DNA of 64,000 nt from Magnetococcales bacterium (GTDB lineage: Bacteria; Pseudomonadota; Magnetococcia; Magnetococcales; UBA8363): positions 3,394 to 67,393 of the forward strand of contig JADGCQ010000005.1 of the NCBI GenBank assembly GCA_015228925.1, given 5' to 3'. Positions 2,378 through 26,031 of the stretch are shown in pieces. Below the pieces are notes generated by a model, which was not told the DNA's origin, searched no databases, and was given only the letters and a program-made list of their open reading frames with translations. A program made the position numbers and the translations under genes. Every line of letters begins with the position of its first letter. Position 1 is the first letter of the stretch.

Positions 2378-4924
2378 TTGGAACTGCTCTACACCATTGC
2401 GGATATCATCAGAAATGACGATGGATTGACAATCCTGTGCATTGTCGTTGCGTTCCTCGCCGTATTTCTGACACTGGAAATCACAGCCCGCTTATCCAAT
2501 AACCATGATGCCAATCGGAAACGTAAAACACGTTATCTGGGCTCCTTGGTTTTGGGGCTGGGGTTATGGATCATCCACCAAGTTGCGCTCTCTCTACAAA
2601 TCCCCACCGGATCATACACCACCCATCTCCACCATTTTGAACACCCTATAGACATCGCTCTCCCCCTGGGAACATCCCTGATACTCGCGCTGTGCGTCGC
2701 GAATACCCTCCTCTCCTTCCCCAGGAAAACAAGCCATCTGCTCTGGGCCAGCTTTTGTCTGGGGCTGGGGTTGCCTGGCGTCGTCGCTGTCGGACTGTTC
2801 TCACATCACGCCAGCGGACTCTGGTTCTTCAATGTCATGGAAACGGCATTCGCTTTCGTCTGCACCACCGCCGCCATTTTCAGTGCTTTTTATCTGGTTT
2901 TAAAGCTTCCAGCCCACTATGCCCTCTCCACCTCCGCACGCTACCTGCTTGCGACCAATCTTCTAACCTTTAGCCTGTTCCTCGGCAATATCCTCTTCAT
3001 CAACGCCTTTTACACCCTCGCCCCGGCGATGCAAACCGAGGAGAATGCGGCTATCGGACATAGCATATTGAGCTTTATAGTCATTATAATTCTTTTTATC
3101 GTTGTTTTATCTCACTATTGGCATCTCGACCAAGAGCGCGTCTCTTTGGAGAAGAGCGTCCATGACCTGCAATTGTCGCAGGAAATCGCCCATATGGGCC
3201 ACTGGGAATGGGATCTGGTAACCGACGACATCACTTGGTCAAACCGATTGGCCGTCATCTTTTCAATGCCATCGGATAGAAATCGTGCCGATCTTTTTTC
3301 AAACACCATTCATCCCAATGATCGTGTGGATGTGATGCAATGCCGCAGGCAAGCACGTCTGGACCCCCTTGGCCAATGGTCCATCCGCTATCGCATCATC
3401 TGTCCCAACGGTGAAATACGGATGATTCGCGAACATGGACGCACCTTAACCAACCTACACGGCACACCAACCCGGCTGTTGGCGACTGTCGCCAATGTGA
3501 CCCATATTTATGATATGGAAAAACGGGAGGAACGGGTGATGCAGTCCCAGATTGCCCTGAGCGCGTTATTGGAAACGGGGCTGGAACCCTTGGACTTGGA
3601 AAAACAGCTTAATGTTGCACTCCATATCATTCTTACCGTCCCTTGGCTGTCGATCAAATATCAGGGATCCATCTTTCTCGTCGATCCCGATTCGGGCGAT
3701 TTGCGACTGGCCTCCCATATCGGCCTGTCGGAGCAGCAAGTGCGTTTGTGCAGCCACGTCAAGCGCGGCCATTGTCTTTGCGGAAAAGCACTAGCACAAC
3801 AAAAAATTGTCTTCACCTCACATCTCGATGAAAATCACCCGATCACCTATCCTGGCATAGTCCCTCATGGGCACTATTGTGTCCCCATCGTTTCCCGCAG
3901 CCGGGTCGTCGGAGTACTCAATCTCTATGTTCCCCACGGCTATGAAAAAAATTCCGAGGAGGACGCCTTTTTAACCACCATTTCCAACACCCTGGCGGGG
4001 TTAATCGATTTACGCCATACCCAGGCCCGGTTGGCCAACAAACAGGAATTCATTACCACCATTCTGCGCACCGCACCATCCCTGGTCCTCGTATTAGACC
4101 AAGATGGACGGGTTATCCTGTTCAACCATGCCTGTCAAACACTGACGGGATACACGGAAGAGGAGGTGGTAGGACGCGAAATTTGGAAGTTTTTGATTCC
4201 CCCTTCCGAAGTCGTCGAATTAAAGGAAAAACTTCAAGGTCTTTACCCGGGAGGGAGGCCGCTCGACCACGAAGGGCACTGGTTGACCATCCATGGGGAT
4301 GCCCCCCTGATTGCCTGGTCGAGTACCGCCATCGCCACCACCGAAAATACCCAACGCCATATCGTCGGCACTGGCGTGGATATTTCGCAAAAGCGGCGCG
4401 CAGAACAACAACTGCGCTTTTTGGCCAGTCATGATTCACTCACCGGGTTGCCCAACCGATCCCAATTTATGGAACATTTGATCGTCAGCCTAGCCCAAGC
4501 CAAAAGAAGTGGACGCCATCTGGCGGTGTTATTTTTGGATTTGGATCGTTTTAAAACGGTCAACGACACCCTCGGACACGAAATTGGTGATCGACTGCTC
4601 ACCGCAGCCGCCTCGCGCATCCGCAGCAGCGTCCGAGAAATGGATGTAGTCGCCCGCATTGGTGGTGATGAATTTACCGTCCTTATGACGGGGCTTGTGG
4701 ATATCGACCCCATCGCCACCATCGCCAAGAAAATTATCACCAACATTGATAAAATTTTTGAAATCGATCAACACCCCTGTCACATCGGTGTCAGCGTCGG
4801 CATCGGTCTGTTCCCCGAACATGGCGACGATCCCCAGACCCTGCTGAAAAAAGCGGACCAGGCTATGTATGCCGTCAAAGAGTCCGGTCGCAACAGCTTT
4901 AAAATTTGGGATGAAACGTGTTGA
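2378..4924 (+). CDS. Membrane sensor diguanylate cyclase: multi-TM N-terminus, PAS, GAF, PAS, GGDEF
   Basis: About 7 hydrophobic segments at the N-terminus. GAF-like CxC-containing middle region. Intact GGDEF (RIGGDEFTVLM) with RxxD I-site (REMD) five residues upstream. TTG start as given by the ORF track. Confidence 0.85.
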   Translation: MELLYTIADIIRNDDGLTILCIVVAFLAVFLTLEITARLSNNHDANRKRKTRYLGSLVLGLGLWIIHQVALSLQIPTGSYTTHLHHFEHPIDIALPLGTSLILALCVANTLLSFPRKTSHLLWASFCLGLGLPGVVAVGLFSHHASGLWFFNVMETAFAFVCTTAAIFSAFYLVLKLPAHYALSTSARYLLATNLLTFSLFLGNILFINAFYTLAPAMQTEENAAIGHSILSFIVIIILFIVVLSHYWHLDQERVSLEKSVHDLQLSQEIAHMGHWEWDLVTDDITWSNRLAVIFSMPSDRNRADLFSNTIHPNDRVDVMQCRRQARLDPLGQWSIRYRIICPNGEIRMIREHGRTLTNLHGTPTRLLATVANVTHIYDMEKREERVMQSQIALSALLETGLEPLDLEKQLNVALHIILTVPWLSIKYQGSIFLVDPDSGDLRLASHIGLSEQQVRLCSHVKRGHCLCGKALAQQKIVFTSHLDENHPITYPGIVPHGHYCVPIVSRSRVVGVLNLYVPHGYEKNSEEDAFLTTISNTLAGLIDLRHTQARLANKQEFITTILRTAPSLVLVLDQDGRVILFNHACQTLTGYTEEEVVGREIWKFLIPPSEVVELKEKLQGLYPGGRPLDHEGHWLTIHGDAPLIAWSSTAIATTENTQRHIVGTGVDISQKRRAEQQLRFLASHDSLTGLPNRSQFMEHLIVSLAQAKRSGRHLAVLFLDLDRFKTVNDTLGHEIGDRLLTAAASRIRSSVREMDVVARIGGDEFTVLMTGLVDIDPIATIAKKIITNIDKIFEIDQHPCHIGVSVGIGLFPEHGDDPQTLLKKADQAMYAVKESGRNSFKIWDETC

Positions 4925-5345: not shown

Positions 5346-6728
5346 TTAACCCTTGACCGATTCATTCTGAGTGATGAACGTATGATAGGGAAGATCCAGA
5401 ATATGGTGAAAGGTGATGATGATGGCTACCATGAAGGTGATCAGACAGGCGGCGAAATATCCAAAACCATAATAGGGAAAGCCAAGATTCATCGATAACA
5501 GCGAGAAGACAAAGTTGGATAGCAGGAAGATGAAACTAACCTGTAATGCCTTGCGGCGACAATCAAAATAGGACAAAAGAATATTCATGAACAAAATACA
5601 GACGTGGTAAAATGCCCCCAACACCCCCAGCCGATACATCCCCATCTGTTTAAAGTTGATGCCAAACCAGGTAAACAGATGCGGTGCCATCAAAATAGCC
5701 AACAGGCTGATCCCCCCCTGGAGAATCAAAAAATTACGCCCGCTCACATGCACCGCTTCGATCAGTTGTTTATGATTGTCCCGGATGACCTGAAAATTGG
5801 CGTGTTTTTGAATGTCTCGGTAAAATTTTAAATAATGTTCATAAAATCGAGTCTCCATGCTCAACACAAAGGAGGCCATGGAGGGGACGATGGAAAGATA
5901 GGCGAGAAACATGGCACTATCATAGTTGGAATAGGAGAGAAATCCCCCGGCCACCACATCTCTTTCTGGACAAAACCACATGATCCATTTGTCCACCCAA
6001 GCGGCCAAATTAAACGTCAAACCGACCAGGGCCAAATCCCAATACCGCCTGAAATAGGGGAGAAATCCGAAAAAGTTTTTGGCTTCATAGGGATATTCGG
6101 CAAAGACCCGGGCGATGATCCCAAACAGGATGATGGCCAACCCCGCATTGAAACCAAAAAACATCCCCACCACCCCCAGATCCTTGGCCAAAAAAGGGTT
6201 GGAAATGCCACCAAACGCCATGCCGATAAGAAAAATACGGATAACCATTTTATAATCTTTGAGTGCGGTGATAAAAATGGTCACCAACCAGACACCATTG
6301 ATCAAAAAATAATTGATGAAGGCACTGAGTGCCGTCATAAACTCAATATCGACATAGAAAAAATAAAATAAAAAAGCCAGCGGAAACTGTATCGCATAGA
6401 TCAAAATCAATCCCCCCAGGAGGGCACCGGGGGCTTTTTCCACCTCTTTCAGAAAAATCAAATCGGAGATATACCGGGTAAGCACCATCACAATGGGGCC
6501 GGATATCACCAAAGAAAATGAAAAATTATAAATGATAGCAATGCGAAAGGTAATCTGTTGCTCGACGGTGGTAAAATACGATCCCAGAGCCACAATCCCC
6601 GTGAGGGCCAGGATGGTGAACAACCAGGGGCCGGTCGCCACCAATGCCGAATAACCAAATCCGCTCAAAAGGCCAATCAGATTGTCCTTGGTCGTCAGAT
6701 TACGCAATACAAAACCGATACCGGCCAT
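5346..6728 (-). CDS. pelG: Pel polysaccharide biosynthesis membrane protein PelG
   Basis: 460 aa polytopic membrane protein starting MAGIGFVLRNL, typical of PelG. It is the last gene of the pel-ordered operon. Confidence 0.8.
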   Translation of the reverse strand: MAGIGFVLRNLTTKDNLIGLLSGFGYSALVATGPWLFTILALTGIVALGSYFTTVEQQITFRIAIIYNFSFSLVISGPIVMVLTRYISDLIFLKEVEKAPGALLGGLILIYAIQFPLAFLFYFFYVDIEFMTALSAFINYFLINGVWLVTIFITALKDYKMVIRIFLIGMAFGGISNPFLAKDLGVVGMFFGFNAGLAIILFGIIARVFAEYPYEAKNFFGFLPYFRRYWDLALVGLTFNLAAWVDKWIMWFCPERDVVAGGFLSYSNYDSAMFLAYLSIVPSMASFVLSMETRFYEHYLKFYRDIQKHANFQVIRDNHKQLIEAVHVSGRNFLILQGGISLLAILMAPHLFTWFGINFKQMGMYRLGVLGAFYHVCILFMNILLSYFDCRRKALQVSFIFLLSNFVFSLLSMNLGFPYYGFGYFAACLITFMVAIIITFHHILDLPYHTFITQNESVKG

Positions 6729-6731
6729 GCT

Positions 6732-8309
6732 TTAAACCTCGTCGAGACGGCTGGTGGGACATTGGCATAAGCCGGTATAAATCTCCCGGTAGGTCTGTGT
6801 CAGGGTATCCTGGTCATAATAGGTTTTGACCCGTTGGCGAATCGCCTGGGAACATTGTTGCCACCAGGAGGGTTGCGTCAACAGACGTGCCAACTCCTGG
6901 GCCGTCTCGGATGGATTGGAAACCCGTGTCACCGCCCCCCCCGGCCCCAATGGGGGATCCTCCGTCGCCATCCCCAAGATCATCTCACGACAGGCCCCCA
7001 CATCGGTCGCCACCGTCGGAACACCGGCAGCCCCCGCCTCCAAAATCACCAAAGGTTGCCCCTCACTGATGCTGGTCAATACCAACACATCAATCTTGCC
7101 CAAATAGTCCACCAAGTTGACCCGACCCGTGAATACAACCATCTCCTGCAACCGAAAATGATGGATCAACCCCATGCACTCTTCATAATAGCCTTCATCC
7201 TCTTCCGTCGGTCCCATCACCAGAGCCATGGCTGTGGGAACCGCATGGCGCAGAATGGCGCACGCCTGAATGAATCCTTTGATATCTTTGATGGGGACCA
7301 CCCGGCCAATCAAGGCGATGGTGGGGGGTCTGCTCCCCTTGTCGGAGACCAAATTTTCAAACCGACGCCAAGCAATCCCATTGGGAATCACCCGCATTTT
7401 CTCAGGGTCAGCCCCATCCGCCTTCTGGAAATCCTGATTACCCCCATAGATGGTGATGATCTGATCACACGCCTGGTAGCAAGCTTTGGAATAAGCCTGG
7501 AACGCATGAATCCACAGTTTGCGGCAATCATTGCGATGCCCTTCCAACTGCAAACCGGCATGGGGATCCTCATAAAGCCAGTCGGCCATGGTGATTTCGA
7601 TACGACGTTCATTGGTGTAGATACCGTGTTCACAGACAATCACCGGACGATGGGTTTCCAGACGGGCACGGGCGAGAAAAAGACCAGCATAGCCCGTGGA
7701 CAGGGAATGATAGGTCTTGGCCTTGGGGAGGTCGGCAAGGAGAATGGTGAACAGATTTCCGGCAAGATAACGCCAAGTCCAAAAAAAGTCCAAAAACGGC
7801 CCCCCCGGCAACAACCGCTCATAAAGTTTCAACAAAAGCTCCCAGGCAGGTTTGGAATTCAATAACCACCCTGGATCCAGACGCCGTTCATAGGGTGCCA
7901 ACGTTGCAATGATCTGCCGCAACGCCGGCAGCCCCCCCTCCTCCTGAAATTGATACAACCCCTGTTCCAAAGCGGCAAACAAGGCGACCGGAAGTTCCCG
8001 ATACCCCAACTTCCCCTGGGGTGGGGCCAGGGTGACATGGGTGATCCCATGGACGTTGGCGGGAATCTCATAACGGGTCTGAAGTTTTTGATTGGGTGCC
8101 AAAAGGGTCAGAAGGTGAAAACGAAATTCGGGGAGACTCTGGATCAGTTCATGAACCCAACCCGAAACGCCACCCGCCACGTAAGGATATGTCCCCTCGA
8201 CAATCAGACAGATATCGATATCTTCCACACCCGACGCCGAAGCCTTGGATCTGCCGATCAAGGATTTGGACCATTTCCAAGCACCCGGATTCCATAAGCG
8301 GGTCATCAT
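6732..8309 (-). CDS. pelF: Pel glycosyltransferase PelF (GT4 family)
   Basis: DICLIVEGTYPYVAGGVSGWVHELI N-terminal motif and the C-terminal GT4 E-x7-E region (SEGQPLVILEAGAAGVP). The start was chosen at ATG 8309, which overlaps the pelE stop (ATGA). Confidence 0.9.
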   Translation of the reverse strand: MMTRLWNPGAWKWSKSLIGRSKASASGVEDIDICLIVEGTYPYVAGGVSGWVHELIQSLPEFRFHLLTLLAPNQKLQTRYEIPANVHGITHVTLAPPQGKLGYRELPVALFAALEQGLYQFQEEGGLPALRQIIATLAPYERRLDPGWLLNSKPAWELLLKLYERLLPGGPFLDFFWTWRYLAGNLFTILLADLPKAKTYHSLSTGYAGLFLARARLETHRPVIVCEHGIYTNERRIEITMADWLYEDPHAGLQLEGHRNDCRKLWIHAFQAYSKACYQACDQIITIYGGNQDFQKADGADPEKMRVIPNGIAWRRFENLVSDKGSRPPTIALIGRVVPIKDIKGFIQACAILRHAVPTAMALVMGPTEEDEGYYEECMGLIHHFRLQEMVVFTGRVNLVDYLGKIDVLVLTSISEGQPLVILEAGAAGVPTVATDVGACREMILGMATEDPPLGPGGAVTRVSNPSETAQELARLLTQPSWWQQCSQAIRQRVKTYYDQDTLTQTYREIYTGLCQCPTSRLDEV

Positions 8310-9910
8310 GACACAGCCAGATGCGTTTGAATTTGCGCTTCGATGCGCGCCGCCCATTGCGCCAGATTTTGAGAATCCATATCGACAAATTGCACTTTGG
8401 TTTTGGCTTCGGTTTTCAACTGCCTTTGGGCCATATCGGTGGCCAGCGCGGTCAGAATATCGGGCTTGCCACGAATGATGGGGATAAAATCTTGGATCGA
8501 AATTTCCAGCAGCCGACATTTTTCAGTCAATGCCAAGCAATTGGCATTTCGTTTGGCCCCGGTCAACAAAGACATCTCACCAAAATAATTCCCCTCACCC
8601 AGTCGCGCCACCTCCATCGATCCTTGGCCAGGGGTATCCAAGGTCACCACAACCATACCGGAAACAATCAAGTAAAAAGAGTCCCCCGTTTCACCCTGAC
8701 GAACAATGGTTTCCCCCTCCTTGTACTCAAGAACCTTCCCCGCCTTGACCAAGGAGGTCCGTTCAGGAACACTGAAGAATTGGAAAATCGGCACATGATG
8801 CAGACCATCGCCATTATACCATCCCGACCATAAATCCACCGTATCTCGGATACGGACCATCCAATCTTCGTCACCCAAAAACAGCTTTCGGTGGTGCTGG
8901 GACAACGCCGCCAGTTGATCAAACCGTTTCAGCTTGAACAAAGTCTCCATGGCCCAAAGGACCATTGGGTGGGTCGCCTCCCCGTGACGCAGGGTCGCCT
9001 CAAAAAATTCCGCAGCCTCCTCCAGTGCCCCGGAACGGACCAAAGTTCGTCCCAAAGCGATGGCGATCCCGTGGTCCCCAGGTCGCCCCGCCAGACAGGC
9101 ACGATATCCAGCGATGGCCTTTTGGCGATTTTCCCCCTCCCGGACCGGATCCAACAACCCTGTAAAGGCAAAATCATCATAATGCCGAGCGACCGTCAAA
9201 ACCAGTTCCATATCCTCAGGATGATGTTCCAGTTGTTGCTCAAACGCCATGGTACGACGCATGAAACTGTTTTCAACATGAGAAATGGCCGTCGCCGCTT
9301 GAACCCGGACCGCATTGTCGGCATTGTTCACCGCTTCCCGCAGTACCGGTGCAAACGCAGGTTTAAAATGGCGTGACATTTTGGCAATCATGGTTTGTTT
9401 TTGTTCCTGCGTCCCATAGGCCAAAATATCCATGAACGGCGTCAAAGCTGCGTTGGCATTGGCCCCCTGGCTTTCAATCCGGGACATGAGTTCCATGGAG
9501 GCATGGATAAAATCGGCGGGAAACAAACTTTCATACCATTCCTCAAAGGAGGTCGCCGTTTTACGATATTCCCAAAACAGCCCAAAGGCCAACATAACAC
9601 CGATAATCCCCACAAACCCCATCATGCCGGTCGCCAGGGGGAGAAGATAATAAAATCCGTTGAGGCACGGAGATGGCCTGTTTCTTCCGCGATACCACGC
9701 CCAGAAAAACAGCACCAAAGCCAAGACACTGTGCCATCCGATCAAATAGACCGGGGTTTTCAGGGGATCCAACCCATACTCCCAAAACATGCCCCACAAC
9801 AGCGCAATCTGGAGGAGACACACCAGCAGACACAGCAGCATAAACCAAAAAGCGCAAGAAAAATCCCGTTCATCCGCCAACGGTTCCATGGAAATGGGAG
9901 AACCGGACAT
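8306..9910 (-). CDS. pelE: PelE-like TM/TPR protein fused to a C-terminal cyclic-nucleotide-binding (CAP_ED) domain
   Basis: Sits at the position of pelE in the operon. N-terminal TM helices, then a helical TPR-like middle region. The C-terminus reads FFSVPERTSLVKAGKVLEYKEGETIVRQGETGDSFYLIVSGMVVV...YFGEMSLLTGAKRNAN. Confidence 0.7.
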   Translation of the reverse strand: MSGSPISMEPLADERDFSCAFWFMLLCLLVCLLQIALLWGMFWEYGLDPLKTPVYLIGWHSVLALVLFFWAWYRGRNRPSPCLNGFYYLLPLATGMMGFVGIIGVMLAFGLFWEYRKTATSFEEWYESLFPADFIHASMELMSRIESQGANANAALTPFMDILAYGTQEQKQTMIAKMSRHFKPAFAPVLREAVNNADNAVRVQAATAISHVENSFMRRTMAFEQQLEHHPEDMELVLTVARHYDDFAFTGLLDPVREGENRQKAIAGYRACLAGRPGDHGIAIALGRTLVRSGALEEAAEFFEATLRHGEATHPMVLWAMETLFKLKRFDQLAALSQHHRKLFLGDEDWMVRIRDTVDLWSGWYNGDGLHHVPIFQFFSVPERTSLVKAGKVLEYKEGETIVRQGETGDSFYLIVSGMVVVTLDTPGQGSMEVARLGEGNYFGEMSLLTGAKRNANCLALTEKCRLLEISIQDFIPIIRGKPDILTALATDMAQRQLKTEAKTKVQFVDMDSQNLAQWAARIEAQIQTHLAVS

Positions 9911-9916
9911 GTCGCG

Positions 9917-11368
9917 CTAGTCCTCTTTGGGCTTTTTGGCCTTGTACAACGTTTGCGTCGTCGTAGAGAACCGCGCCCTGGGGACCACGGAGTAGACGTG
10001 TTGTTCCAGGGCCTGATCAAATTTTTTCAACACGACACTCATATTTTCCGAGGGGGTTGCCGGCAGCAACAGGGCAAACTCAAACCCTGGGGTTTCATAG
10101 TCAAAGGCCATATCGGTATTACGCATGACCACACGGGTGGCATCATTGATCAAGATGGGAATTTTCCGTTGCTCATCCAGGTTCAAGGCATCGGGATTTT
10201 CCAGTCGCACGATCATCAGGCTGACTTCAAAGTTCAATCGTCTCCCCAGATTGGTCATGAGGGCCACCTGTCGTGGGAAAAAACCATAGGAAAACAAGTT
10301 ACTGTCCTGATTGACGACGCTATCGGCCCGTGCCGACTGTAACCGATTGGCCAAATCGTAGGAAGCCCCAGCCCACTCACACAACGCCTTGAAATTTTCC
10401 ACCGAAGAGACGTTAAAATCCATGAAACCCAGGCTTTCAATCTTGATCATTCCGCTGACATCACCGTTTTCCCGGTTGATCATCGGACCCGCCATCACCC
10501 CCTCCCCGTCCAGGATATCCCTGTCCTCACGATTGTTGATCGTCAGGAACCGTTTTTCACCCACGATGGCCTGATACAGGGAATCCCGAACACCGAAAGA
10601 TTCCTTGACGGGTTGCTCCTCCTTCCAACCCGATTTCACCATGACCGTCAGATTTTGTTCCTCCAAGACAAAGATAGAAAACATTTCTGGACTGATCACC
10701 GACCGGATCATATCCCGCGTCCCCGAAAGCACCATGGCAGGGTCTTCATGTTCCAGATCCTTGGCCGCTTTGAAGGAGGAAACCACTGTTTTTAGTTGCC
10801 CTGAAACCTGAATTTCCAGGCGTTCCTTAGCCTTATTGACCTGCTCATAAGCGCGGGTGATCACCTGTTCTCGCGCCTCGGCAGCGGTCATATCCTTCCA
10901 CAGGGTACTCCGCTCCACCCGATGTCGATCCTGCAACAAGCCTAAAACAACCGCTCCGACAACCCATAAGAGCGGTACAATGGCGACGGAATACAGCAGT
11001 TCAAAGGAATCCTGGCCATACTGCGCCTGGGGAATCGTACCGGAAAGCAACAAAAGACTGGAGAAAAAAGCGGCCAAAAGGCCATGACTGGTACCGTACT
11101 GCACACTCATAAGGATCACGGCGATCCAGAAAGGATGGGGACACACATCGGCGAAACGATCCGAAGCACCCTGCGTCAGATCATACGCCATAAGCACCGA
11201 AAAAAACAGGAGTAATTCCCCCCAGGCCGCCGCCCGGATTCCGAGAAAGAATACTGTTTTTCTGCGGGCAGCGTTGGGTTTTACAGGGGCCTCTGCAACC
11301 GCATCCGGCAGCCCCGGCGAGGGGGATGTTTTCGATTTTGGAGAAGTTTTCGGGCCATGCGTCGTCAC
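9917..11368 (-). CDS. pelD: PelD-like c-di-GMP receptor (TM, GAF, degenerate GGDEF)
   Basis: Four N-terminal TM segments and the operon position match PelD. The degenerate GGDEF region retains an RxxD motif (RNTD) five residues before ETPGFEF. Confidence 0.75.
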   Translation of the reverse strand: MTTHGPKTSPKSKTSPSPGLPDAVAEAPVKPNAARRKTVFFLGIRAAAWGELLLFFSVLMAYDLTQGASDRFADVCPHPFWIAVILMSVQYGTSHGLLAAFFSSLLLLSGTIPQAQYGQDSFELLYSVAIVPLLWVVGAVVLGLLQDRHRVERSTLWKDMTAAEAREQVITRAYEQVNKAKERLEIQVSGQLKTVVSSFKAAKDLEHEDPAMVLSGTRDMIRSVISPEMFSIFVLEEQNLTVMVKSGWKEEQPVKESFGVRDSLYQAIVGEKRFLTINNREDRDILDGEGVMAGPMINRENGDVSGMIKIESLGFMDFNVSSVENFKALCEWAGASYDLANRLQSARADSVVNQDSNLFSYGFFPRQVALMTNLGRRLNFEVSLMIVRLENPDALNLDEQRKIPILINDATRVVMRNTDMAFDYETPGFEFALLLPATPSENMSVVLKKFDQALEQHVYSVVPRARFSTTTQTLYKAKKPKED

Positions 11369-11390
11369 TGTCTTCTTCTATCATAAAGGA

Positions 11391-12302
11391 TTATTTGGGA
11401 GGTAACGACAACTCCAGAATATCAACATCAATGGTGTTCTCTTTCTTTGGTTTTTCGTCGTTTTTGGCCAAAGCTTTTTCCTTGGCCCGCCTTTCCTCCT
11501 CCCCTTTTTTCATCAACAGGCTACGTTGTTCAAAAAGTTTGGCGCAGGCTTCATCCAGTTCACCCAATACCGGATCGCCCTGTTGATGATGCATTGTCCC
11601 CGCATCATTGCCCGGACTTTGCCGCCCCACACCACGAACTCTTCCCACCGTAACCTGGCCAGAAGGGGGTGCCGTTGCCACTGTTTCCTCCTTCGGCATA
11701 GATTCTTTCTTGGCATCAACCGCTTTGGACAATTTGCCAACGGTATTGTGAACCGCTTTCTGGGCGGTGTAATAAATACTTTCCCGACTTAAAAAACCCG
11801 AACCCATCAACGATTGACTGGCACGCCACAATACGACACCATCGCGAATACGCACCAATTGCACATTAAAACCGACTGCCGGCTCTTCTCGTAACCCATG
11901 CTGGTAGGAAAACTCCGACACGCTCCCCGTCAAAACCGCATCCACAAACAACCCCGTCCCCACATCCCGCGCGATGGAAACATCGGCCAATCGATCCATA
12001 TCGACTTTGAGTCCAATCAACTGCCGCCGCATTTCACTTTCCTCCAACAAGCAAAACTGCTTGCTGGCCATCAATTCGGTGGCAAACAATTGGGCCACGG
12101 ACAATCCAGCGGTAGGACTGTTGCTCAGATTTTCAAATGGCAAAACCGCGACAGTCAGTGGCGAATTTTTTTCCAGTTCTTCATGGACAAATGAGCGATT
12201 GACCCCCATGGCGCAACCAAACAAACCGAGAGCCACCAAACCTATCGCTATTTTGACACGCGATATTGGCCCTGTACAACCGGAAAGCGAACGTTCATTC
12301 AT
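11391..12302 (-). CDS. pelC: PelC-like outer-membrane lipoprotein with a roughly 130-aa charged C-terminal extension
   Basis: Lipobox LGLFGC. VAVLPFENLSNSPTAGLSVAQLFATEL is PelC-like. The Lys/Glu-rich tail is absent from the roughly 170-aa canonical PelC. Confidence 0.65.
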   Translation of the reverse strand: MNERSLSGCTGPISRVKIAIGLVALGLFGCAMGVNRSFVHEELEKNSPLTVAVLPFENLSNSPTAGLSVAQLFATELMASKQFCLLEESEMRRQLIGLKVDMDRLADVSIARDVGTGLFVDAVLTGSVSEFSYQHGLREEPAVGFNVQLVRIRDGVVLWRASQSLMGSGFLSRESIYYTAQKAVHNTVGKLSKAVDAKKESMPKEETVATAPPSGQVTVGRVRGVGRQSPGNDAGTMHHQQGDPVLGELDEACAKLFEQRSLLMKKGEEERRAKEKALAKNDEKPKKENTIDVDILELSLPPK

Positions 12303-12317
12303 AATTGATCAACCACT

Positions 12318-13958
12318 TCAGAATAGAAGTTTCAATGAGTAATCGACCTGGTCGGTTACCACCCATTCACCCGCCTGTCGGGAATACCCCCTTTGCAAAC
12401 TGAGGGCCGATTTTACATCGGCCATGGGTTCATAGATCAAGGAAGCTGCCAGTGAAGGGCCGTGCTGATAAGTCAACCGATCATAGGAATATCCCAAAAC
12501 AGAACTATAGGTTAGATAGTCATTCCAGAGGTCAAACCAAGCGGCACTGGCCAGATGGGTTTCCTTATCGGGCATGGGAAGGAGGGTGTACGTAACGCCG
12601 TCGGTATTGAGACGTTGCGCCTCATGAAACACCATCTCTTTATCCAAATTATAGGAAAGTTCCAGATTGTTGCGGCTGAGAAAAGCATGACGCAAAGATC
12701 CCAAAAGGGCCAAACTCTCCGTGGCATTTTCATCATCCGACACGCCATACCGATTGACCGCCCCCGTCAGCGATGTGCGCAATCGATCACCATGCCAAGC
12801 ATCATCCCGTTGGAATTCCAACCGATCACGCCAACCACCGTCCACCAAACTGTTGGTGGTCGCCCCATAAGGGCGGTGCCAATCGGCGAGGAAACGGGTC
12901 GAGGCTGTGGGGTGAAAAAAATCATGACCGACAGTGACCCCCAGATGATCCTCCCCGGCGAGGATACCCACACGGGAAATGTCGCCATCGGCCCAGGACA
13001 TGGCCAATTCAGCGGCCCCCGACAACCATTCGACGACTTGGTTGGCGGTGATCCCCTCGGCGTTGGTCACATTATCGATTTCCAAATCGACCCGACGTAA
13101 ATCAAGGTTCAGGTTGAGTCCCTGGGAACCCACCAGGAGCAATTCAACATCCTGGCCAAGCTGAACTTCATTGTTTTTGGGTGAATGTTTGTAGGAAGCA
13201 CTTGTCTGTAAATAGGGGCCTTGATTATGGTGCAACAAAGCCTTGGCAAAAATAATATTGGGTTCGCCAATGGCCTGGGTCAATCCTCGGTCGTACAGGG
13301 CCACCGCAGACCGCCACCGCCCCAGTTGATCCTCCAATGTTCCCAATTCACCGAGAAATTCCACATTCTCCGGCGACTCCTCCACCAAGCCGCGCATCCG
13401 CTCCCGGGCACCATACAGGGTACGGGTCGATACCATGGTCTTGGTCTTGAGAAACCGCAGTCGGGCATCCTCAACTTTCCGTTGTTCCAGCAGCTCCGGT
13501 GTTGGCGGTGGCAGGGTCATGGTCACCACCACATCGTTTCCCGTCGCCGTGACATGAAACCCAGTCCCCGCCTGATTAGCCCGCAACAACAAGGAATCAT
13601 AGCCGTAGCGCACATCGCCCAACCATGCAAAAAGTTCCTGGGTCGCCTCCTCCATCCCCTGGGGGATAAAAGGTTTTTCAAACACCAAGACCAACTCGCG
13701 TCCCTCGATCCGTTTGGTAAAGTTGACCCCTTGATTCCAGGTCAGGATCAATCGCGCCTCCTCACCACCATGCTCGGAACGGACAACCACGGTCGTCCCA
13801 ATCACCGCCTCAGGTTCTGCATCCCCCCCGGAAGCGGGGGCCTTACCGGGAGAAACCTGAAAAATATCGACATCGACCGACGCGGGAACGCCGGTTTCGG
13901 CCCATAAACCCAACGGAATCAAGGTTAACAAAAGACAGAAAACAAAAAACACACGCAT
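12318..13958 (-). CDS. Secreted outer-membrane protein at the PelB position (short TPR-like segment plus putative beta-barrel)
   Basis: Signal peptide MRVFFVFCLLLTLIPLGLWA. Alternating beta-strand-like C-terminal half ending in ...YSLKLLF (aromatic terminus). It is only 546 aa, against about 1200 aa for PelB. Confidence 0.5.
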   Translation of the reverse strand: MRVFFVFCLLLTLIPLGLWAETGVPASVDVDIFQVSPGKAPASGGDAEPEAVIGTTVVVRSEHGGEEARLILTWNQGVNFTKRIEGRELVLVFEKPFIPQGMEEATQELFAWLGDVRYGYDSLLLRANQAGTGFHVTATGNDVVVTMTLPPPTPELLEQRKVEDARLRFLKTKTMVSTRTLYGARERMRGLVEESPENVEFLGELGTLEDQLGRWRSAVALYDRGLTQAIGEPNIIFAKALLHHNQGPYLQTSASYKHSPKNNEVQLGQDVELLLVGSQGLNLNLDLRRVDLEIDNVTNAEGITANQVVEWLSGAAELAMSWADGDISRVGILAGEDHLGVTVGHDFFHPTASTRFLADWHRPYGATTNSLVDGGWRDRLEFQRDDAWHGDRLRTSLTGAVNRYGVSDDENATESLALLGSLRHAFLSRNNLELSYNLDKEMVFHEAQRLNTDGVTYTLLPMPDKETHLASAAWFDLWNDYLTYSSVLGYSYDRLTYQHGPSLAASLIYEPMADVKSALSLQRGYSRQAGEWVVTDQVDYSLKLLF

Positions 13959-14111: not shown

Positions 14112-16697
14112 ATGTCCATTTGGAAATCCCTTACCATCTACTTCCTGGTCTGGACCACGATCATCGGTGGATCCTTGCTGGCCAACTTCTACCACCACCG
14201 GGAGATGGCCCAGGATAATGCCATGTATGAGAGCATACCCATACAATCTTTTTTGGATCAACAAGATAAACATATTATAATCCTTCAATTTTCTCACGTC
14301 CTGGTTTGGTTTCTGGGATTGGGGCTGATCACTTTTTTCACCAGACGGCGTTTTCTCGACATTTCAGCACAGAACCAATCCCTGAAAGCACTCCAGTCCA
14401 GCAATGCCCTATTGGAAAGGGCACAGGAAATCGCCCATGTCGGCAACTGGGTCCGGGATCTTGAATCGGGCACCCTGATATGGTCCCAAGAACTCTATCG
14501 CATTCTCGGCCTTGATCATAACCAGTTTAATACTTCGTTCGAAAATTTTCTAAACTGTATTCATCCCGATGACCGGAACACAGTACTCGAAGCGTTAAAA
14601 GCGTCCATTAAAAGTCAGGACGATACCTTTCAAGTCGAATATCGCATCATCCGGCCCAGCGGAGAGGAACGGATCGTCCGTGCGCGGGGTCACATAGAAC
14701 GCAGCCATGACGGCACCCCGCGACAAACCATCGGAACCGTGCAGGACATCACCGATGCCCGACGCGCCAATCAGACCATACAGAATCAACAGATACTTCT
14801 CCGATCCATGTTCGACAAAGCACTGGACGCCATCATCTCCATTGACCGTAATGGAAATGTCGTCGATTTCAATCCATCCGCTGAAGCGATATTCGGTTAT
14901 TCCAGACAGGAAATACTTGGCAAGCAACTGGTCGATTACATCATCCCTGATGAACTGAAAGAAAGGCACAACAAAGCCCTGGAAAAACGACTGGCCTCTG
15001 GGGGTACGCCGACAGAATTGGGAAAACGCTTTGAGCTGCCAGGACTAAGGTCGGACGGCACGCGCATCGACCTTGAGATGGCCCTCACCATGATCGAAAC
15101 GAACGCGGGCGTACTCTACACCGGCTTCATCCATGATGTCACCGAGAAGAAACAATTATTCCAATCCCTGCGCGACACCCTACAGACTGCCGAAGCGGCC
15201 AACCAGGCCAAAAGTGAATTCTTGGCTACGATGAGCCATGAGATCCGCAGTCCCATGAATGCCATCCTCGGCATGACCGATTTGGTATTGAATACCAATC
15301 TGACGGAAAGTCAGAGGGATCACCTGAACATTGTCCAGAGTTCCGCATCCAACCTGCTGGAAATCATCAACAACATCCTTGATTTTTCAAAAATTGAGGC
15401 GGGAAAGATCACGCTGGAACAAATCCCCTTTGATCTTCGTGGTCAGATTGAAGAAGTCTGCGAAACCCTTGCAGTTCGGGCACATCAAAAAGGACTTGAA
15501 CTGTTGTGCGACATTCCGCCAGATCTCCCGGAAGTCGTTGGAGACCCATACCGACTGCATCAGATTCTGATGAATCTGGTCGATAATGCGATCAAATTCA
15601 CCTCTCAGGGAGAGGTCGTCGTCCGTGTTACCTGCGGTCCCAGTGCCATGAATGATGAAAAGATGGGAGAGATTCATATTGGGGTGGCGGATACAGGGAT
15701 CGGTATCGCCACGGAACATATCGAGCAACTGTTTGAACAGTTCACCCAGGCGGATGGCTCCACAACCCGCAAGTATGGCGGAACAGGGCTTGGTTTGACG
15801 ATTTCCAAACGGTTGGTGGCATTAATGGATGGCAAGATTTGGGTAGACAGTGAACCAGACCAAGGAAGCACTTTTCATGTTTTGCTTCATCTTCCGATCA
15901 ACCAGGAAAGTCGCTCCGCCCCAAAATCGTCCAACCATCTTTCCGGGGTTCGTCTGCTCCTCGGTATCGGCAACGACAAGGGACGCAACATTCTCAAAAG
16001 GACACTGACCCATTTCGGTGCGCAGATCACAGAGGCGAAAGATAGTTCCAGCCTATTGGAATCTTTCAAATCATCGCGACAAGAAGGTCAACCCTTCCAG
16101 ATCATCATTCTGGACACAGAAATGCCGGAATCGGAATCTTTCTGGCAGGAAGTTGGAGCCGATGAAAAAATTTTAATTCTGACTTCCACCAACCCCAGCC
16201 AGGGAAATCCCATCACAAACGCAATCTTCTCAAAAGCAGCCCGACTGAGAAAACCAATTAAACTCAACAGTCTGTTCAAAAAGATGAATATCTTACTGGA
16301 TCGAAATCGGGTGAACGATCAAAAACCGACACCCAACATCCCAGAAAAAGCCGGTCATACAGTCAAGAAAGAGGCTCCGGTTTTATTCCCCATCACGACG
16401 GACCTTGCCACCTTCGAGGCGGCTAGCCGGGATTTTCTCGACAACGGCCCCGACCATCACCAGCAGTTGCATGGGGCATTCCAAGCACACGAGGTCAAAC
16501 AAGCCTTGGCGGAACTTCAATGGATGCAAGAGGCAGCCACAAAACTGGGTGCCAATCGTTTGAAAATCCTTTCCACACGCCTCAAAGGGGTAGCAGAGTT
16601 GAAAGATTGGGAAGAAACCGCCAAACGATTTGAAGATTTGGACCAGGAATTTCAGAAAGTCCTGGCCACACTGCCCCAGACAAGGGGCTTATCTTAA
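14112..16697 (+). CDS. Sensor histidine kinase: 2 TM, 2 PAS, HisKA, HATPase_c, atypical receiver-like and HPt-like C-terminal regions
   Basis: H-box [17 protein letters not shown]-boxes DTGIGI and [14 protein letters not shown]. Receiver-like [10 protein letters not shown]. HPt-like segment with Gln at the expected His position ([16 protein letters not shown]). Confidence 0.85.
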
Positions 16698-17530: not shown

Positions 17531-17767
17531 GATTCATGCGACTCCCTAGAATTAGCGATGGACACTATCGTGATTTTCCTCTGAAAATTGCAAAAAATCC
17601 AGGTAGACAAACAATCCAGAAAAAGAAACAGGATTTGCACATATTTTCTTACTGGTATTTTTTTCTACACGGATGTATATTGGAATTTTTTATCAGTGCA
17701 TAAAAATATTCTTGCCTTGATAAGGTGTTTTTATTGTTCCCTTAAATTTTCCTTAGAAGGTATCGTC

Positions 17768-19402
17768 ATGATTCGTTATCGATTCCTACGACAAAGTTTT
17801 TTGGTTTCTCTTCTCATCGCCGTTGCCATACCGCTGTATACCATTTTTTTCCTATTACCATCATTGACTGCGCAATTGGTGAATACCTTTGAAGAAAACG
17901 CCATCAGCGTCGCCCATCACCTCTCCGCCATGTTACGCGAACACCATCTGTTGCAAGATGGCCAGATTGCTATCTCCCAGGATTTTATGGATGAAGTCAA
18001 AAAAATTTCCCGCGACTTCCACGTCTCCAAACACCGTATTTTTTCCCGTACTGGAAAAATCATCGCCGCCTCCGAAGAAAAAGATATTGGCACAGTCAAT
18101 AAAAATGATTATTTCCACCAAAAGGTCGCCGCAGGACAGATCTTTACCAAGGTGATCGAAAAAGACGAAAAAACCATGGATGGCGAAACGATTCAAAAGG
18201 ATGTGGTAGAAACCTATGTCCCCATGATGGATAATGGACAGTTCTTGGGAGCCTTTGAAATTTATTTCGACATTACAAAACAAAAACACAATCTGAACCG
18301 CTTGACATTTCAATCTTCAGCAATACTGATCTCCATTGGTTTTGGGTTTTTTGGACTATTATTGTTTGTCCGGCATAGCGTCGTCCGCCCCATTTCCGCC
18401 GTTACGGATGCCATGGTCAGGATGGCCCAGGGAGATTTGGAACAACGCGCTCCGGTGAACGGCAAAGATGAGATCAGCACAATGGCCAGCATTTTCAACC
18501 ATATGTGTGAACAATTGCAGGAAAGCCACCGGGGATTGAAACGTGAAAAGAACAAGCTGACCACCATCCTTCTGGGGGCCAGGGAAGGGATTGTGGCCAC
18601 CAACGCCGATGGTGAAATTTCTTTGGTCAATCCTGCGGCGCAAAGACTGTTGGGAAAATCGGAGGAAAGCATTATCGCTGATGGATTTTTACAAATGTTC
18701 GATGATCCCGATTTTATGAAGCATTGCCTAGAAGGGGCCGGAACCGGTATGCCCGACACCATCGTGTATAACAACCATGTTTTAAAGATTTACGCCTCCA
18801 CCATTGTCGCCCCGGATGCTGGAACCATCGGATCGGCGGCATTGATTCGGGATATCACCGATGAAAAAAAACTGGAAGAAAAACTCAGAAAACTTTCCCA
18901 CACCGATGGTCTGACCGGACTATTGAACAGAAGGCGGATGGACGAACTTCTCACCGACGAGATCAACCGCGCCATCCGTTATCATTTGGAGTTTGGTGTT
19001 CTGCTCTTCGATGTGGACCATTTTAAACAGTTTAATGATCGCCATGGCCATGCACAGGGTGATCGGATATTGCAGGGGATCGCAGCCGCCATGACGGGTC
19101 ATTTTCGAAATGTTGATTTTTGTTGCCGCTATGGCGGTGAAGAATTTCTTGTCATCATGCCCAGCACCATCCACCCTGGCATCATGGAAGCTGCGGAACG
19201 GTTCCGCATCCGCATTGAGGAGATGACCATCGATGGATTGAAAGTCACCATCAGCATTGGCGTCGCGGTATACCCACAATCGGGACACTTCAAATCATCG
19301 GAAGAGATTCTCAAAGCGGCGGATGCCGCACTGTATGAAGCCAAAAGTGCCGGTAGGAATTGCGTAAGGCTACCCTCCCCCACTGAGTCCCCCATGCGAT
19401 GA
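17768..19402 (+). CDS. Membrane diguanylate cyclase: periplasmic sensor domain, HAMP, PAS, GGDEF
   Basis: The start was moved to ATG 17768 (MIRYRFLRQSF followed by a TM segment). GGEEF active site (RYGGEEFLVIM) with an RNVD I-site. Confidence 0.85.
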   Translation: MIRYRFLRQSFLVSLLIAVAIPLYTIFFLLPSLTAQLVNTFEENAISVAHHLSAMLREHHLLQDGQIAISQDFMDEVKKISRDFHVSKHRIFSRTGKIIAASEEKDIGTVNKNDYFHQKVAAGQIFTKVIEKDEKTMDGETIQKDVVETYVPMMDNGQFLGAFEIYFDITKQKHNLNRLTFQSSAILISIGFGFFGLLLFVRHSVVRPISAVTDAMVRMAQGDLEQRAPVNGKDEISTMASIFNHMCEQLQESHRGLKREKNKLTTILLGAREGIVATNADGEISLVNPAAQRLLGKSEESIIADGFLQMFDDPDFMKHCLEGAGTGMPDTIVYNNHVLKIYASTIVAPDAGTIGSAALIRDITDEKKLEEKLRKLSHTDGLTGLLNRRRMDELLTDEINRAIRYHLEFGVLLFDVDHFKQFNDRHGHAQGDRILQGIAAAMTGHFRNVDFCCRYGGEEFLVIMPSTIHPGIMEAAERFRIRIEEMTIDGLKVTISIGVAVYPQSGHFKSSEEILKAADAALYEAKSAGRNCVRLPSPTESPMR

Positions 19403-24066: not shown

Positions 24067-25806
24067 TCACAATCGTTTGCCTTCCCGGAGCATCTTGGTC
24101 AACTCTTCGGCAGGCACAGGCGCACTGAACAAAAAACCCTGCATCTGGTTGCAATTGAGCGCACGCAGAATGGCCAGTTGTTCCTCGGTTTCCAACCCTT
24201 CGACAATCACCTTCTGGTCCAGGCTGTGGGCCATGGCGATAATGGCATTGACAATGGCCTTGTCGCCACTGTTCTCGGTGATGGAACTCACGAAAGAGCG
24301 ATCAATTTTCAATGTTTTAAATGGAAAATGCCGCAGTTGGCTCAAAGAGGAATAGCCGGTACCAAAATCATCAATAGAGAGATGAACGCCCAACTCGCTA
24401 ATTTCTCGAAGCATGATTACGGCTTTTTCCACATCTTCCATGATCGCGCTTTCGGTAATTTCCAGGTCAAGGAGGGAAGGTTCAACCCCTGTTTGCATCA
24501 AAGCATCCTTGATGATAAACACCAGATTTTGACGCTGAAACTGTAGGGCGGAAAGATTGACTCCCACACGAATGGGAGGCAGATCCATAGCTTTCCACTG
24601 GGCAATCTGTTTGCATGCGGTACGAATCACCCACTCCCCAATGGGGAGGATCAAACCGGTCTCTTCGGCGACCGGAATAAATTCGGCGGGAGAAACCATC
24701 CCCCGTTCCGGGTGAATCCAGCGAATCAAAGCTTCGGCACCAAATACTTGGCCCGTTTTCAAGTCTACCTGGGGTTGATAGTACAACCGCAGTTCATCCC
24801 CCTCCAGGGCATGTCGTAAACTCGATTCCAGAGCAAAACGCTGGCGTGCCGCTTCAGCCATGTCTGCGGAGAAGAATTGATAGTTATTACGACCACGACG
24901 ACGGGCATGATCCAATGCGGTTTCAGCATTCTTCAACAAGCTTGCGGCATCCGTGGCATCCTGGGGAAAAAGGGTAATGCCAATGGCCACGGAAATTTCC
25001 ACATCCTGAGAACCCAACCGAGTCGGTTCAGCCAGGGCTTCGTAGATTTTTCGGGCAACAAAACCGGAATTACGTACCGCACCGGTCCCTTCATCGATAT
25101 CGGTCAACAACAAGCCAAATTCATCGGCACCGATGCGGGCCACACTGTCACTGGTACGCAGGCATCGCGTCAGACGAACGGCCACCTCCTTGAGCATTTC
25201 ATCACCCAACTGGGTTCCCAGAGAATCGTTGATCAAGCGAAACCGATCAAGATCCAATATCAACACCCCAAGCGAATAATTATGACGTTTCGCTCCGGCA
25301 ATCGCCTGTTCCAATCGGTCGAAAAACAAAGCGCGGGTCGCCAGTTGCGTCAAAGGATCCTTAGCATTATCACGGATACTTTCATCATTTTTATCCAATA
25401 ATTGGGTATTTGAAAGTTGGCAGAGGAAAAAACGAACTTTGCCCTGCGATGGCAAAATAGCACTAATTTTCAGGAATTTTTCACATTTTTCCTGTTTGCC
25501 CACGCATTTCAGATGGACACTGCCAGACCAATAACCGTCCTGCCACAACGTTTCCACGATTTCATCAAGCAATATCCTATCCGCCGATTCGGGGAACAAA
25601 CGGGCAATATTTTTTCCTTCCAAAGCTTCATGGGGTCTATGCGTCATCCGGGAGAAGGCGCGATTGATTCGGCGCACGTTGCCACGCCAATCCACCAGGG
25701 CCACCCCCTCACTGCTATTTTCCAGGAGTACCTTGAGCAGTTTTTCCTCGAAGGCAGACCCGCCCAAAAACTGCGATAAATGATCCGTTCGGTTTTGAGA
25801 TTCCAT
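24067..25806 (-). CDS. PAS, degenerate GGDEF (GADEF), EAL phosphodiesterase
   Basis: RIGADEFGLLL in place of GGDEF. Intact EAL motifs EALIRW and DDFGTGYSSL. The start was chosen at MESQNR. Confidence 0.85.
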   Translation of the reverse strand: MESQNRTDHLSQFLGGSAFEEKLLKVLLENSSEGVALVDWRGNVRRINRAFSRMTHRPHEALEGKNIARLFPESADRILLDEIVETLWQDGYWSGSVHLKCVGKQEKCEKFLKISAILPSQGKVRFFLCQLSNTQLLDKNDESIRDNAKDPLTQLATRALFFDRLEQAIAGAKRHNYSLGVLILDLDRFRLINDSLGTQLGDEMLKEVAVRLTRCLRTSDSVARIGADEFGLLLTDIDEGTGAVRNSGFVARKIYEALAEPTRLGSQDVEISVAIGITLFPQDATDAASLLKNAETALDHARRRGRNNYQFFSADMAEAARQRFALESSLRHALEGDELRLYYQPQVDLKTGQVFGAEALIRWIHPERGMVSPAEFIPVAEETGLILPIGEWVIRTACKQIAQWKAMDLPPIRVGVNLSALQFQRQNLVFIIKDALMQTGVEPSLLDLEITESAIMEDVEKAVIMLREISELGVHLSIDDFGTGYSSLSQLRHFPFKTLKIDRSFVSSITENSGDKAIVNAIIAMAHSLDQKVIVEGLETEEQLAILRALNCNQMQGFLFSAPVPAEELTKMLREGKRL

Positions 25807-26031
25807 AGATATTCCCAGATTAACCCAACACGCTGCGGCAAGGGGAACCGTGAACAAACACAAGCGGCATCCCTCGCATCCATCATCTTAGGCCAAGCAA
25901 GGAAACATGTCTATCGAAGCAGTAAAAACCCAACGCCCCTGGCGATTATTTTTACAAACAGCCAGATCGATCACCTGGAAAAATAACACCCTGAGCCAGG
26001 AAAAGGAAACATAGTCCACAACGCCTGTGGG

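Follow-up and report, generated by a model that had tools for sequence, protein, structure and literature searches.

We analyzed a 64,000-nucleotide stretch of the genome of a Magnetococcales bacterium (assembly GCA_015228925.1, contig JADGCQ010000005.1; the whole stretch is hereafter called the window), which harbors an operon for synthesis of the exopolysaccharide Pel. Six tightly packed genes, all on the minus strand, occupy positions 5346-13958 in the order pelB-like, pelC, pelD, pelE, pelF, and pelG. The gene in the pelE position (8306..9910, minus strand) encodes a PelE-like membrane scaffold that continues into a C-terminal cyclic nucleotide-binding (CNB) domain. According to the list of open reading frames (ORFs), the translation, the Pfam matches, and homologues of the same architecture, it is one uninterrupted ORF of 534 amino acids (aa) plus stop, reading from 9910 to 8306. 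In the plus-strand reading the same interval is riddled with stop codons, showing that the minus strand is coding. The original prediction, made from the letters of this DNA, proposed here a PelE fused to a cyclic nucleotide sensor; its coordinates were the exact bounds of the ORF, but the strand was left unstated, and both peptides that it cited are present in the minus-strand translation. An exact-sequence look-up of the window protein returned no record.

The protein consists of a membrane region, a helical scaffold, and the CNB module. Residues 1-118 (9557..9910) comprise two transmembrane helices (14-44 and 51-77) and a 30-residue hairpin (84-97 and 99-118), as judged from hydropathy, an AlphaFold2 (AF2) model, and the charge distribution in 150 homologues; hydropathy by itself places the hydrophobic segments at residues 15-46, 53-73, and 87-116. 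Residues 119-365 (8816..9556) form an all-helical, TPR-like PelE scaffold domain. It was recognized in two alignments, by a TPR_19 match at residues 263-308 that remained below the Pfam cut-off (23.5 bits; cut-off 25), and by AF2 helices that run through residue 362 with a predicted local distance difference test (pLDDT) score of >90. A short linker and the CNB beta-barrel follow (residues 366-480; 8471..8815), the barrel being built of an N-terminal helix (381-390), strands between 392 and 471, and a helix (472-479). It contains the phosphate-binding cassette FGEMSLLTGAKRNA (residues 443-456; 8543..8584), seen in the translation and in alignments with the other fused sequences, CRP, PKG, and MscS-like channels that carry a CNB domain. 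The last part (residues 481-534; 8309..8470) consists of two helices (483-505 and 513-533) in the AF2 model and in an alignment with CRP and the protein P0025. These helices are the counterpart of the hinge/lid C-helix and of a terminal helix that is also found in the MscS-CNB channels.

The CNB module was identified by several approaches. Pfam analysis revealed that residues 394-479 match PF00027 (cNMP_binding; E=2.7e-21; 75.8 bits, cut-off 27.5) over positions 2-86 of the 89 in the profile. NCBIfam models containing CNB domains (CRP, NtcA, and others) matched the same C-terminal stretch. Furthermore, a phmmer search of PDB sequences with the C-terminal 174 residues retrieved PKG, the regulatory subunit of PKA (PKA-R), and CAP, with whole-sequence E values from 1e-13 to about 2e-29. 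In the AF2 model (62-sequence alignment; mean pLDDT 90), this region is an eight-stranded barrel with a cassette helix (445-450) and the trailing hinge/lid helices (472-479 and 483-505). Foldseek aligned the model with the CNB-B domain of PKA RI-alpha (5kjx; TM-score 0.76; root mean square deviation 2.6 Å), for which TM-scores ranged from 0.74 to 0.76 and deviations from 2.6 to 3.7 Å, and also with PKG, PfPKA-R, and channels bearing a CNB domain.

In CRP, PKA, and PKG, the Gly-Glu pair and the Arg of the cassette bind the 2'-OH of the ribose and the cyclic phosphate. The corresponding residues of the window protein (G444, E445, and R454) and also A456 are all intact. Aligning the cassette, a check proposed together with the original prediction, showed that G444, E445, and R454 are invariant in 11 of 11 fused sequences, despite a module identity of only 44-58%. 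By HMMER the cassette aligns with those of the PKG cGMP-binding domains, and its Gly-Glu and Arg could also be aligned to what we take to be G71, E72, and R82 of CRP.

We also compared the rates of evolution along the protein, using relatives in which synonymous sites are not saturated (dS 0.4-1.0). The ratio of nonsynonymous to synonymous substitutions (dN/dS) was 0.11 and 0.10 for the CNB barrel, 0.11 and 0.07 for the helical PelE core, and 0.40 and 0.35 for the last 54 residues. The barrel is as slow-evolving as the PelE core, and the domain is under purifying selection. We conclude that the C-terminal domain is a canonical CAP/PKA-type CNB module with an intact cassette, confirming, far beyond chance, the assignment to the CAP-effector type that had been made from the translation.

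The identity of the N-terminal part was addressed by homology and by genomic position. Residues 1-365 match proteins of approximately 330-430 aa, with E values down to 1e-80. Three of these matches carry the JGI name "polysaccharide biosynthesis protein PelE" (P0010, E=7.7e-62; P0022, E=1.1e-37; and P0105). Alignments revealed 26 invariant columns common to the window protein and 18 proteins of the PelE family, and sharp family motifs in the scaffold domain (FEEWYxSLFP, RVQAATA, and ARHYDDxAFTGLLD). At each locus inspected, the PelE homologue is placed between a PelD-like GAF protein and PelF/PelG, as it is in the window, and the order PelD-like-PelE-PelF-PelG is the same in the relatives. An N-terminal membrane anchor followed by an all-helical TPR-like domain of approximately 230-240 aa completes the resemblance. 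On the other hand, no Pfam or NCBIfam model for PelE was matched by the window protein. Together, these sequence comparisons support its assignment as a genuine member of the PelE family in the PelE position, extended at the C terminus.

Next to this core, the CNB extension turned out to be rare. When 5.8 billion proteins were searched with the full-length window protein, seven clusters with the same architecture of 530-540 aa were recovered, and all but one of those that are named are labeled Magnetococcales. The ORF is likewise uninterrupted, with its junction at the same place, in at least eight independent assemblies (55-96% identity). Profiles of the PelE core, used in word-indexed searches of proteins, added almost nothing to this first search. 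An exhaustive hidden Markov model search, in which the profile of the PelE core was run against 1.84 billion representatives, gave 592 matches at E<=1e-30, and the architecture was seen for the best 150 of them. Only one of these 150, P0006 (534 aa), was fused, and it represents the fused clade; the remaining 149 are 294-434 aa long and have nothing beyond the PelE core. A set of 144 PelE-family representatives spans 329-434 aa, with a median of 366.5. The contrast in length drawn in the original prediction holds, and unfused PelE proteins lack any domain of the CNB kind. The survey of domain architectures qualified the prediction in another respect: the fusion is real, but it is a narrow variant of a Magnetococcales subclade and not a general feature of PelE.

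In line with this, a scan of one genome per GTDB species with an eight-sequence PelE alignment detected 44 PelE loci, four of which are full-length fusions, all in metagenome-assembled genomes (MAGs) of Magnetococcales. Other Magnetococcales have unfused PelE loci. No Pseudomonas locus was among the 44, no named PelE was among the plasmid matches, and the sequence clusters consulted contained only MAG, metagenome, or unnamed entries. A tblastn search of all fetched loci with the module had matches only in the fused genes and in one TPR-CNB protein unrelated to them. In a neighbor-joining tree of PelE cores, the fused sequences form one clade with a bootstrap support of 200/200. Among themselves, their cores are 58-95% identical, whereas identity to the nearest unfused protein, likewise from Magnetococcales, does not exceed 45%. 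The single clade, the rarity of the fusion, and this pattern of identities therefore indicate, as far as sequences can tell, that a single fusion event took place in the ancestry of a Magnetococcales subclade and that its product has been retained since.

As to the origin of the module, its best matches outside PelE are the C-terminal modules of MscS-like channels (PF00924+PF00027), with up to 49% identity; the cassette type and the two helices behind the barrel are common to both. A stand-alone CNB protein of 273 aa, encoded at L003, the closest unfused Magnetococcales pel locus, was considered as donor and rejected: it is 28% identical to the module, below the tblastn threshold, and the MscS-CNB modules are much closer. 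This gene (14393-15214 of that locus, plus strand) lies approximately 1.2 kb downstream of pelG, and its product has an intact cassette (FGEVSFLTPRVRVTS). This protein could be a regulator with no connection to the fusion, or the counterpart of the fused module encoded as a separate gene. P0036 and P0024, considered as independent PelE fusions, were rejected since they match through the CNB domain only. They are soluble proteins with N-terminal TPR repeats and tandem CNB domains, encoded outside pel loci (P0036 at 39-1379 of L005), and they show that combinations of TPR and CNB arise independently of PelE.

Two genomes with fused loci deserve mention. In the MAG Magnetococcales C5_bin.1, a fused and an unfused PelE locus were found together (L006 and L012; contigs JACSDG010000048 and JACSDG010000050), so that one organism may possess two pel systems, or two variants of PelE. 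Another operon, L050 (GCA_015234035.1, JADFWV010000133.1), encodes a PelE 89% identical to the window protein and was deposited as "Nitrospirae bacterium." Since every other named fused relative is labeled Magnetococcales, this label is probably a binning or labeling error.

For the CNB module to act as a sensor, the side of the membrane on which it resides is decisive. On average over 150 PelE homologues, the loop that follows the second transmembrane helix is strongly basic, with 2.87 Lys and Arg residues in approximately 10 positions, compared to 0.38 in the first loop; this positive-inside distribution speaks for a cytoplasmic location of the helical domain. The 30-residue hydrophobic segment that follows this basic loop has a GPxGxxG kink at its middle throughout the PelE family, and AF2 models it as the two short helices of the hairpin. 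A hairpin would leave the helical domain in the cytoplasm, whereas a single span would place it in the periplasm. The literature offers both views: a large cytosolic PelE domain was described with a P. aeruginosa fragment comprising residues 95-329 (Lee et al. 2007, PMC2170427), while a 2021 review lists PelE among the periplasmic TPR scaffolds (PMC8892547). A conserved C-terminal sensor of cyclic nucleotides is sensible only in the cytoplasm, and therefore the fusion supports the cytosolic model. We infer that the helical domain of PelE faces the cytoplasm, and the fusion provides independent evidence for this location of the TPR-like domain.

The gene immediately upstream of pelE (9917..11368, minus strand) is in the pelD position. 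Its product of 483 aa has transmembrane segments, a GAF_3 domain (Pfam, E=8e-13), and a degenerate GGDEF domain in which the signature reads PGFEF. Five residues upstream of this signature is the sequence R416-N-T-D419, an intact RxxD motif of the type used as I-site for binding of cyclic di-GMP (c-di-GMP). The RNTD motif is invariant in all examined Magnetococcales PelD sequences that aligned across it, at fused and unfused loci alike. Moreover, when a profile of 10 PelD-position sequences was compared with the diguanylate cyclase structure 3ign (E=1.1e-4), RNTD was aligned to the RQSD I-site. PelD of P. aeruginosa binds c-di-GMP through R367 and D370 of an RxxD-type motif (PMC10185581; PMC8892547) and binds neither cAMP nor cGMP (PMC2170427). 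Since RxxD is retained in the PelD-position protein, a cyclic mononucleotide input through PelE would add to c-di-GMP control rather than replace it, in agreement with the additional layer of control that had been envisaged. Outside this group, in Minwuia/Kordiimonadales and a Pseudomonadota MAG (L016-L019, L022, L032, and L038), RxxD is replaced by SPMV, which suggests that PelD of these Pel systems no longer binds c-di-GMP in the canonical manner.

The junctions of the fusion gene with its neighbors are tight. The stop codon of the PelD-position gene is 6 nucleotides before the ATG of pelE, as seen in the junction sequence. At the other end, pelF (6732..8309, minus strand; 525 aa) probably starts with the ATG at 8309. 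This codon shares bases with the stop codon of pelE in the sequence ATGA, an arrangement that suggests translational coupling. A longer pelF ORF from 8519 would begin 210 nucleotides inside the pelE gene. We rejected this start as spurious because of the ATGA overlap; in addition, the match to NF038011 (E=2.3e-131) begins at residue 102 of the longer ORF, and the PelF starts in relatives also favor 8309. The encoded glycosyltransferase is followed by PelG (5346..6728, minus strand), which matches PF16933 over its full length (E=5.2e-127).

The first part of the operon is less conventional. Its first gene (12318..13958, minus strand) was assigned as a short PelB-like export protein from its position, which is conserved in relatives; the product has 546 aa, whereas P. 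aeruginosa PelB has 1193 aa, and it gave a weak match to TPR_16 and no PDB sequence match. The next gene (11391..12302, minus strand) encodes a lipoprotein homologous to PelC, as revealed by phmmer (P. aeruginosa PelC 9h80_C, E=5e-10; also 5t0z, 5t10, and 5t11). Compared to the 172 aa of P. aeruginosa PelC it has 303 aa, with a C-terminal extension rich in Lys and Glu. No pelA was detected, as neither a GH114 nor a deacetylase gene is present anywhere in the 64-kb window.

The operon is flanked by genes with c-di-GMP-related domains, which encode proteins of the types PAS-GAF-PAS-GGDEF (2378-4924, plus strand), HAMP-PAS-GGDEF (17588-19402, plus strand), and PAS-GGDEF-EAL (24067-25863, minus strand). 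A gene for a PAS histidine kinase (14112-16697, plus strand) is divergent from the operon, and its position is kept in L050. Further away, positions 26032-28647 (minus strand) encode an 871-aa protein in which a metallo-beta-lactamase fold (residues 245-359) precedes a cNMP_binding domain (E=1.7e-16; residues 514-595), with a hemerythrin domain (748-861) at the C terminus. The cassette of this CNB domain (LGEDSALKQTPSPWTFRA) is without the conserved Arg; the architecture is unusual, and the domain is unrelated to the PelE module.

These data can be accommodated by a model in which a genuine PelE orthologue, the scaffold of the PelDEFG machinery, once gained a cytoplasmic module of approximately 170 residues that would bind a cyclic nucleotide and act on Pel synthesis. 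To this model as a whole we give even chances. The ligand would be a 3',5'-cyclic mononucleotide, with cAMP as the default guess. In PKA-R, Epac, HCN, and CRP, an inhibitory contact is lifted when the ligand repositions cassette, hinge, and lid. In the AF2 model, the last PelE helix (349-362) and the first CNB helix are approximately 18 residues apart, which suggests that the domains are closely coupled; therefore, a ligand-driven movement of cassette, hinge, and lid would reach the PelE scaffold. A shift of the scaffold would, in turn, change how PelD and PelG are held and PelF is recruited. By analogy, the apo module is probably inhibitory and the ligand would release the scaffold function of PelE, although we can only guess in which direction the effect would go. 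If so, Pel synthesis would require both c-di-GMP at PelD and a cyclic mononucleotide at PelE. We only tentatively extend the model to a Pel synthase that is a two-messenger coincidence detector, with c-di-GMP via PelD and cAMP or cGMP via PelE both licensing polymerization.

Several observations weigh against such a sensor. The residue after the cassette Arg, usually Ser, Thr, or Ala (Ser in CRP, Ala in PKA, Thr in PKG), is Asn in the window protein and Ala or Gln in its relatives, and thus varies within the fused clade; because of this, selectivity for cAMP or cGMP cannot be assigned from sequence. No class III nucleotide cyclase was present among the 26 window ORFs scanned. The PDB chains of P. 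aeruginosa PelD were matched neither by phmmer (E<=0.01) nor by profiles (E<=1), and therefore the protein upstream of PelE is PelD-like by architecture and position. Likewise, the likeness to P. aeruginosa PelE consists of position, build, and the JGI-named relatives, and PA3060 was set alongside by description. Finally, the organisms of the fused clade are known as uncultured MAGs whose fusion is read from sequence, and the direction of regulation was drawn purely by analogy.

The variable residue and the lack of a cyclase gene in the scanned ORFs also fit a different explanation, namely, that the CNB module is real but does not sense cAMP or cGMP; it could serve ligand-independent oligomerization or docking, or bind another small molecule, as do CooA, NtcA, and CprK of the same superfamily. 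The long C-terminal helices of the AF2 model could dimerize like the C-helix of CRP, which mediates dimerization, and the 871-aa protein with its Arg-less cassette shows that noncanonical CNB domains occur in this genome. However, Gly-Glu...Arg-x-Ala is invariant across modules that have otherwise diverged so far, the barrel is under the same purifying selection as the PelE core, and the nearest relatives of the module also have canonical cassettes (for example, FGEMSLLTGEPRSAT). We consider it unlikely, though it is the alternative that we take most seriously.

We regard it as improbable that the new domain took over from c-di-GMP, with a PelD-position protein that no longer binds this messenger in this lineage. 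This protein is indeed too diverged to match the P. aeruginosa PelD chains even by the 10-sequence profile, and RxxD is lost altogether in some PelD lineages. Moreover, at the estimated position of the secondary contact R402 of P. aeruginosa PelD, as judged from spacing, there is an invariant Lys (K449). However, the RNTD motif stands invariant in its I-site register before the degenerate GGDEF, and the unfused sister loci share it, so that the gain of the CNB module left PelD unchanged; in addition, GGDEF and EAL genes flank the operon. Still less can be said for an artifact, either a frameshift, misassembly, or read-through into a CNB gene, or an N-terminal part that is an unrelated TPR membrane protein. 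Although the lack of a PelE model match and the sub-cut-off TPR_19 score would be compatible with this, the recurrence of the junction across independent assemblies, the dN/dS of approximately 0.1 on either side of it, and the invariant columns shared with PelE-family proteins that always lie between PelD-like and PelF genes have effectively refuted it. Thus, a PelE orthologue with an added cyclic nucleotide-binding module is the reading that we retain.

The fusion proteins are already in public databases, where they are annotated by the CNB domain alone: their NCBI label is "cyclic nucleotide-binding domain-containing protein," and the PelE part went unrecognized. In the searchable literature, we found no paper joining PelE, PelD, and "cyclic nucleotide-binding," and no exopolysaccharide synthase with a built-in receptor for cyclic mononucleotides. 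Such a fusion is also not mentioned in the systematic survey of pel operons (PMC7112194). How c-di-GMP bound to PelD switches on the Pel complex is still unexplained (PMC8461298), and among the subunits of the inner-membrane complex, PelE is understood least. A sensor that was selectively kept at the end of the PelE scaffold suggests that the machine is controlled through the conformation or accessibility of PelE. If the model is true, PelE would be a switch in regulation instead of a passive scaffold, cAMP or cGMP and c-di-GMP signaling would converge directly and posttranslationally on one biofilm-matrix machine, and the Pel synthase of this lineage would become the first machine of the synthase-dependent exopolysaccharide type in which a cAMP/cGMP receptor is built in. 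The reach of the finding is limited: the fusion occurs in only a small number of uncultured magnetotactic cocci, and many bacterial proteins carry a fused CNB domain. The isolated CNB domain, together with truncation and cassette mutants, offers a tractable experimental handle.

The window protein can be compared with several known systems. P. aeruginosa PelE (PA3060, 329 aa; PMC10185581) occupies the same slot between pelD and pelF and has the same build, a membrane anchor followed by an all-helical TPR-like domain of approximately 240 residues (PMC2170427), but it is without the additional C-terminal CNB module of approximately 170 residues. It does not bind c-di-GMP (PMC2170427). PelE is described as a hub of protein interactions in the PelDEFG complex (PMC12345266; PMC13254593), and according to the work of Whitfield (2020), as cited in PMC8461298, P. 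aeruginosa PelE interacts with PelD and PelG and recruits PelF.

The closest relatives of the module itself are in the MscS-like channels with a CNB domain (PF00924+PF00027), which we take to be the "bCNG" family. The identity of up to 49% extends over the barrel, the cassette is of the type FGEMSLLTG(x)2R(x)A, and the module is likewise a C-terminal appendage of an inner-membrane protein. However, the N-terminal partner is a channel in that case and a polysaccharide-synthase scaffold in the window protein, in which ARIEAQIQTHL corresponds only loosely to RIRxFFGL, the conserved terminal motif of the channels. CAP/CRP, PKA-R, and PKG have the same fold, the same ribose- and phosphate-binding cassette residues, and the same hinge/lid helices; in contrast to them, the window protein has no DNA-binding or kinase-regulating partner, and an Asn follows the cassette Arg. 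In its overall design, a nucleotide receptor within a subunit of an inner-membrane synthase, the window protein resembles PelD and the PilZ domains of Alg44 and BcsA (PMC8461298; PMC8892547). While all described examples sense c-di-GMP, the putative receptor described here is of the cAMP/cGMP type and resides on a different subunit, PelE.

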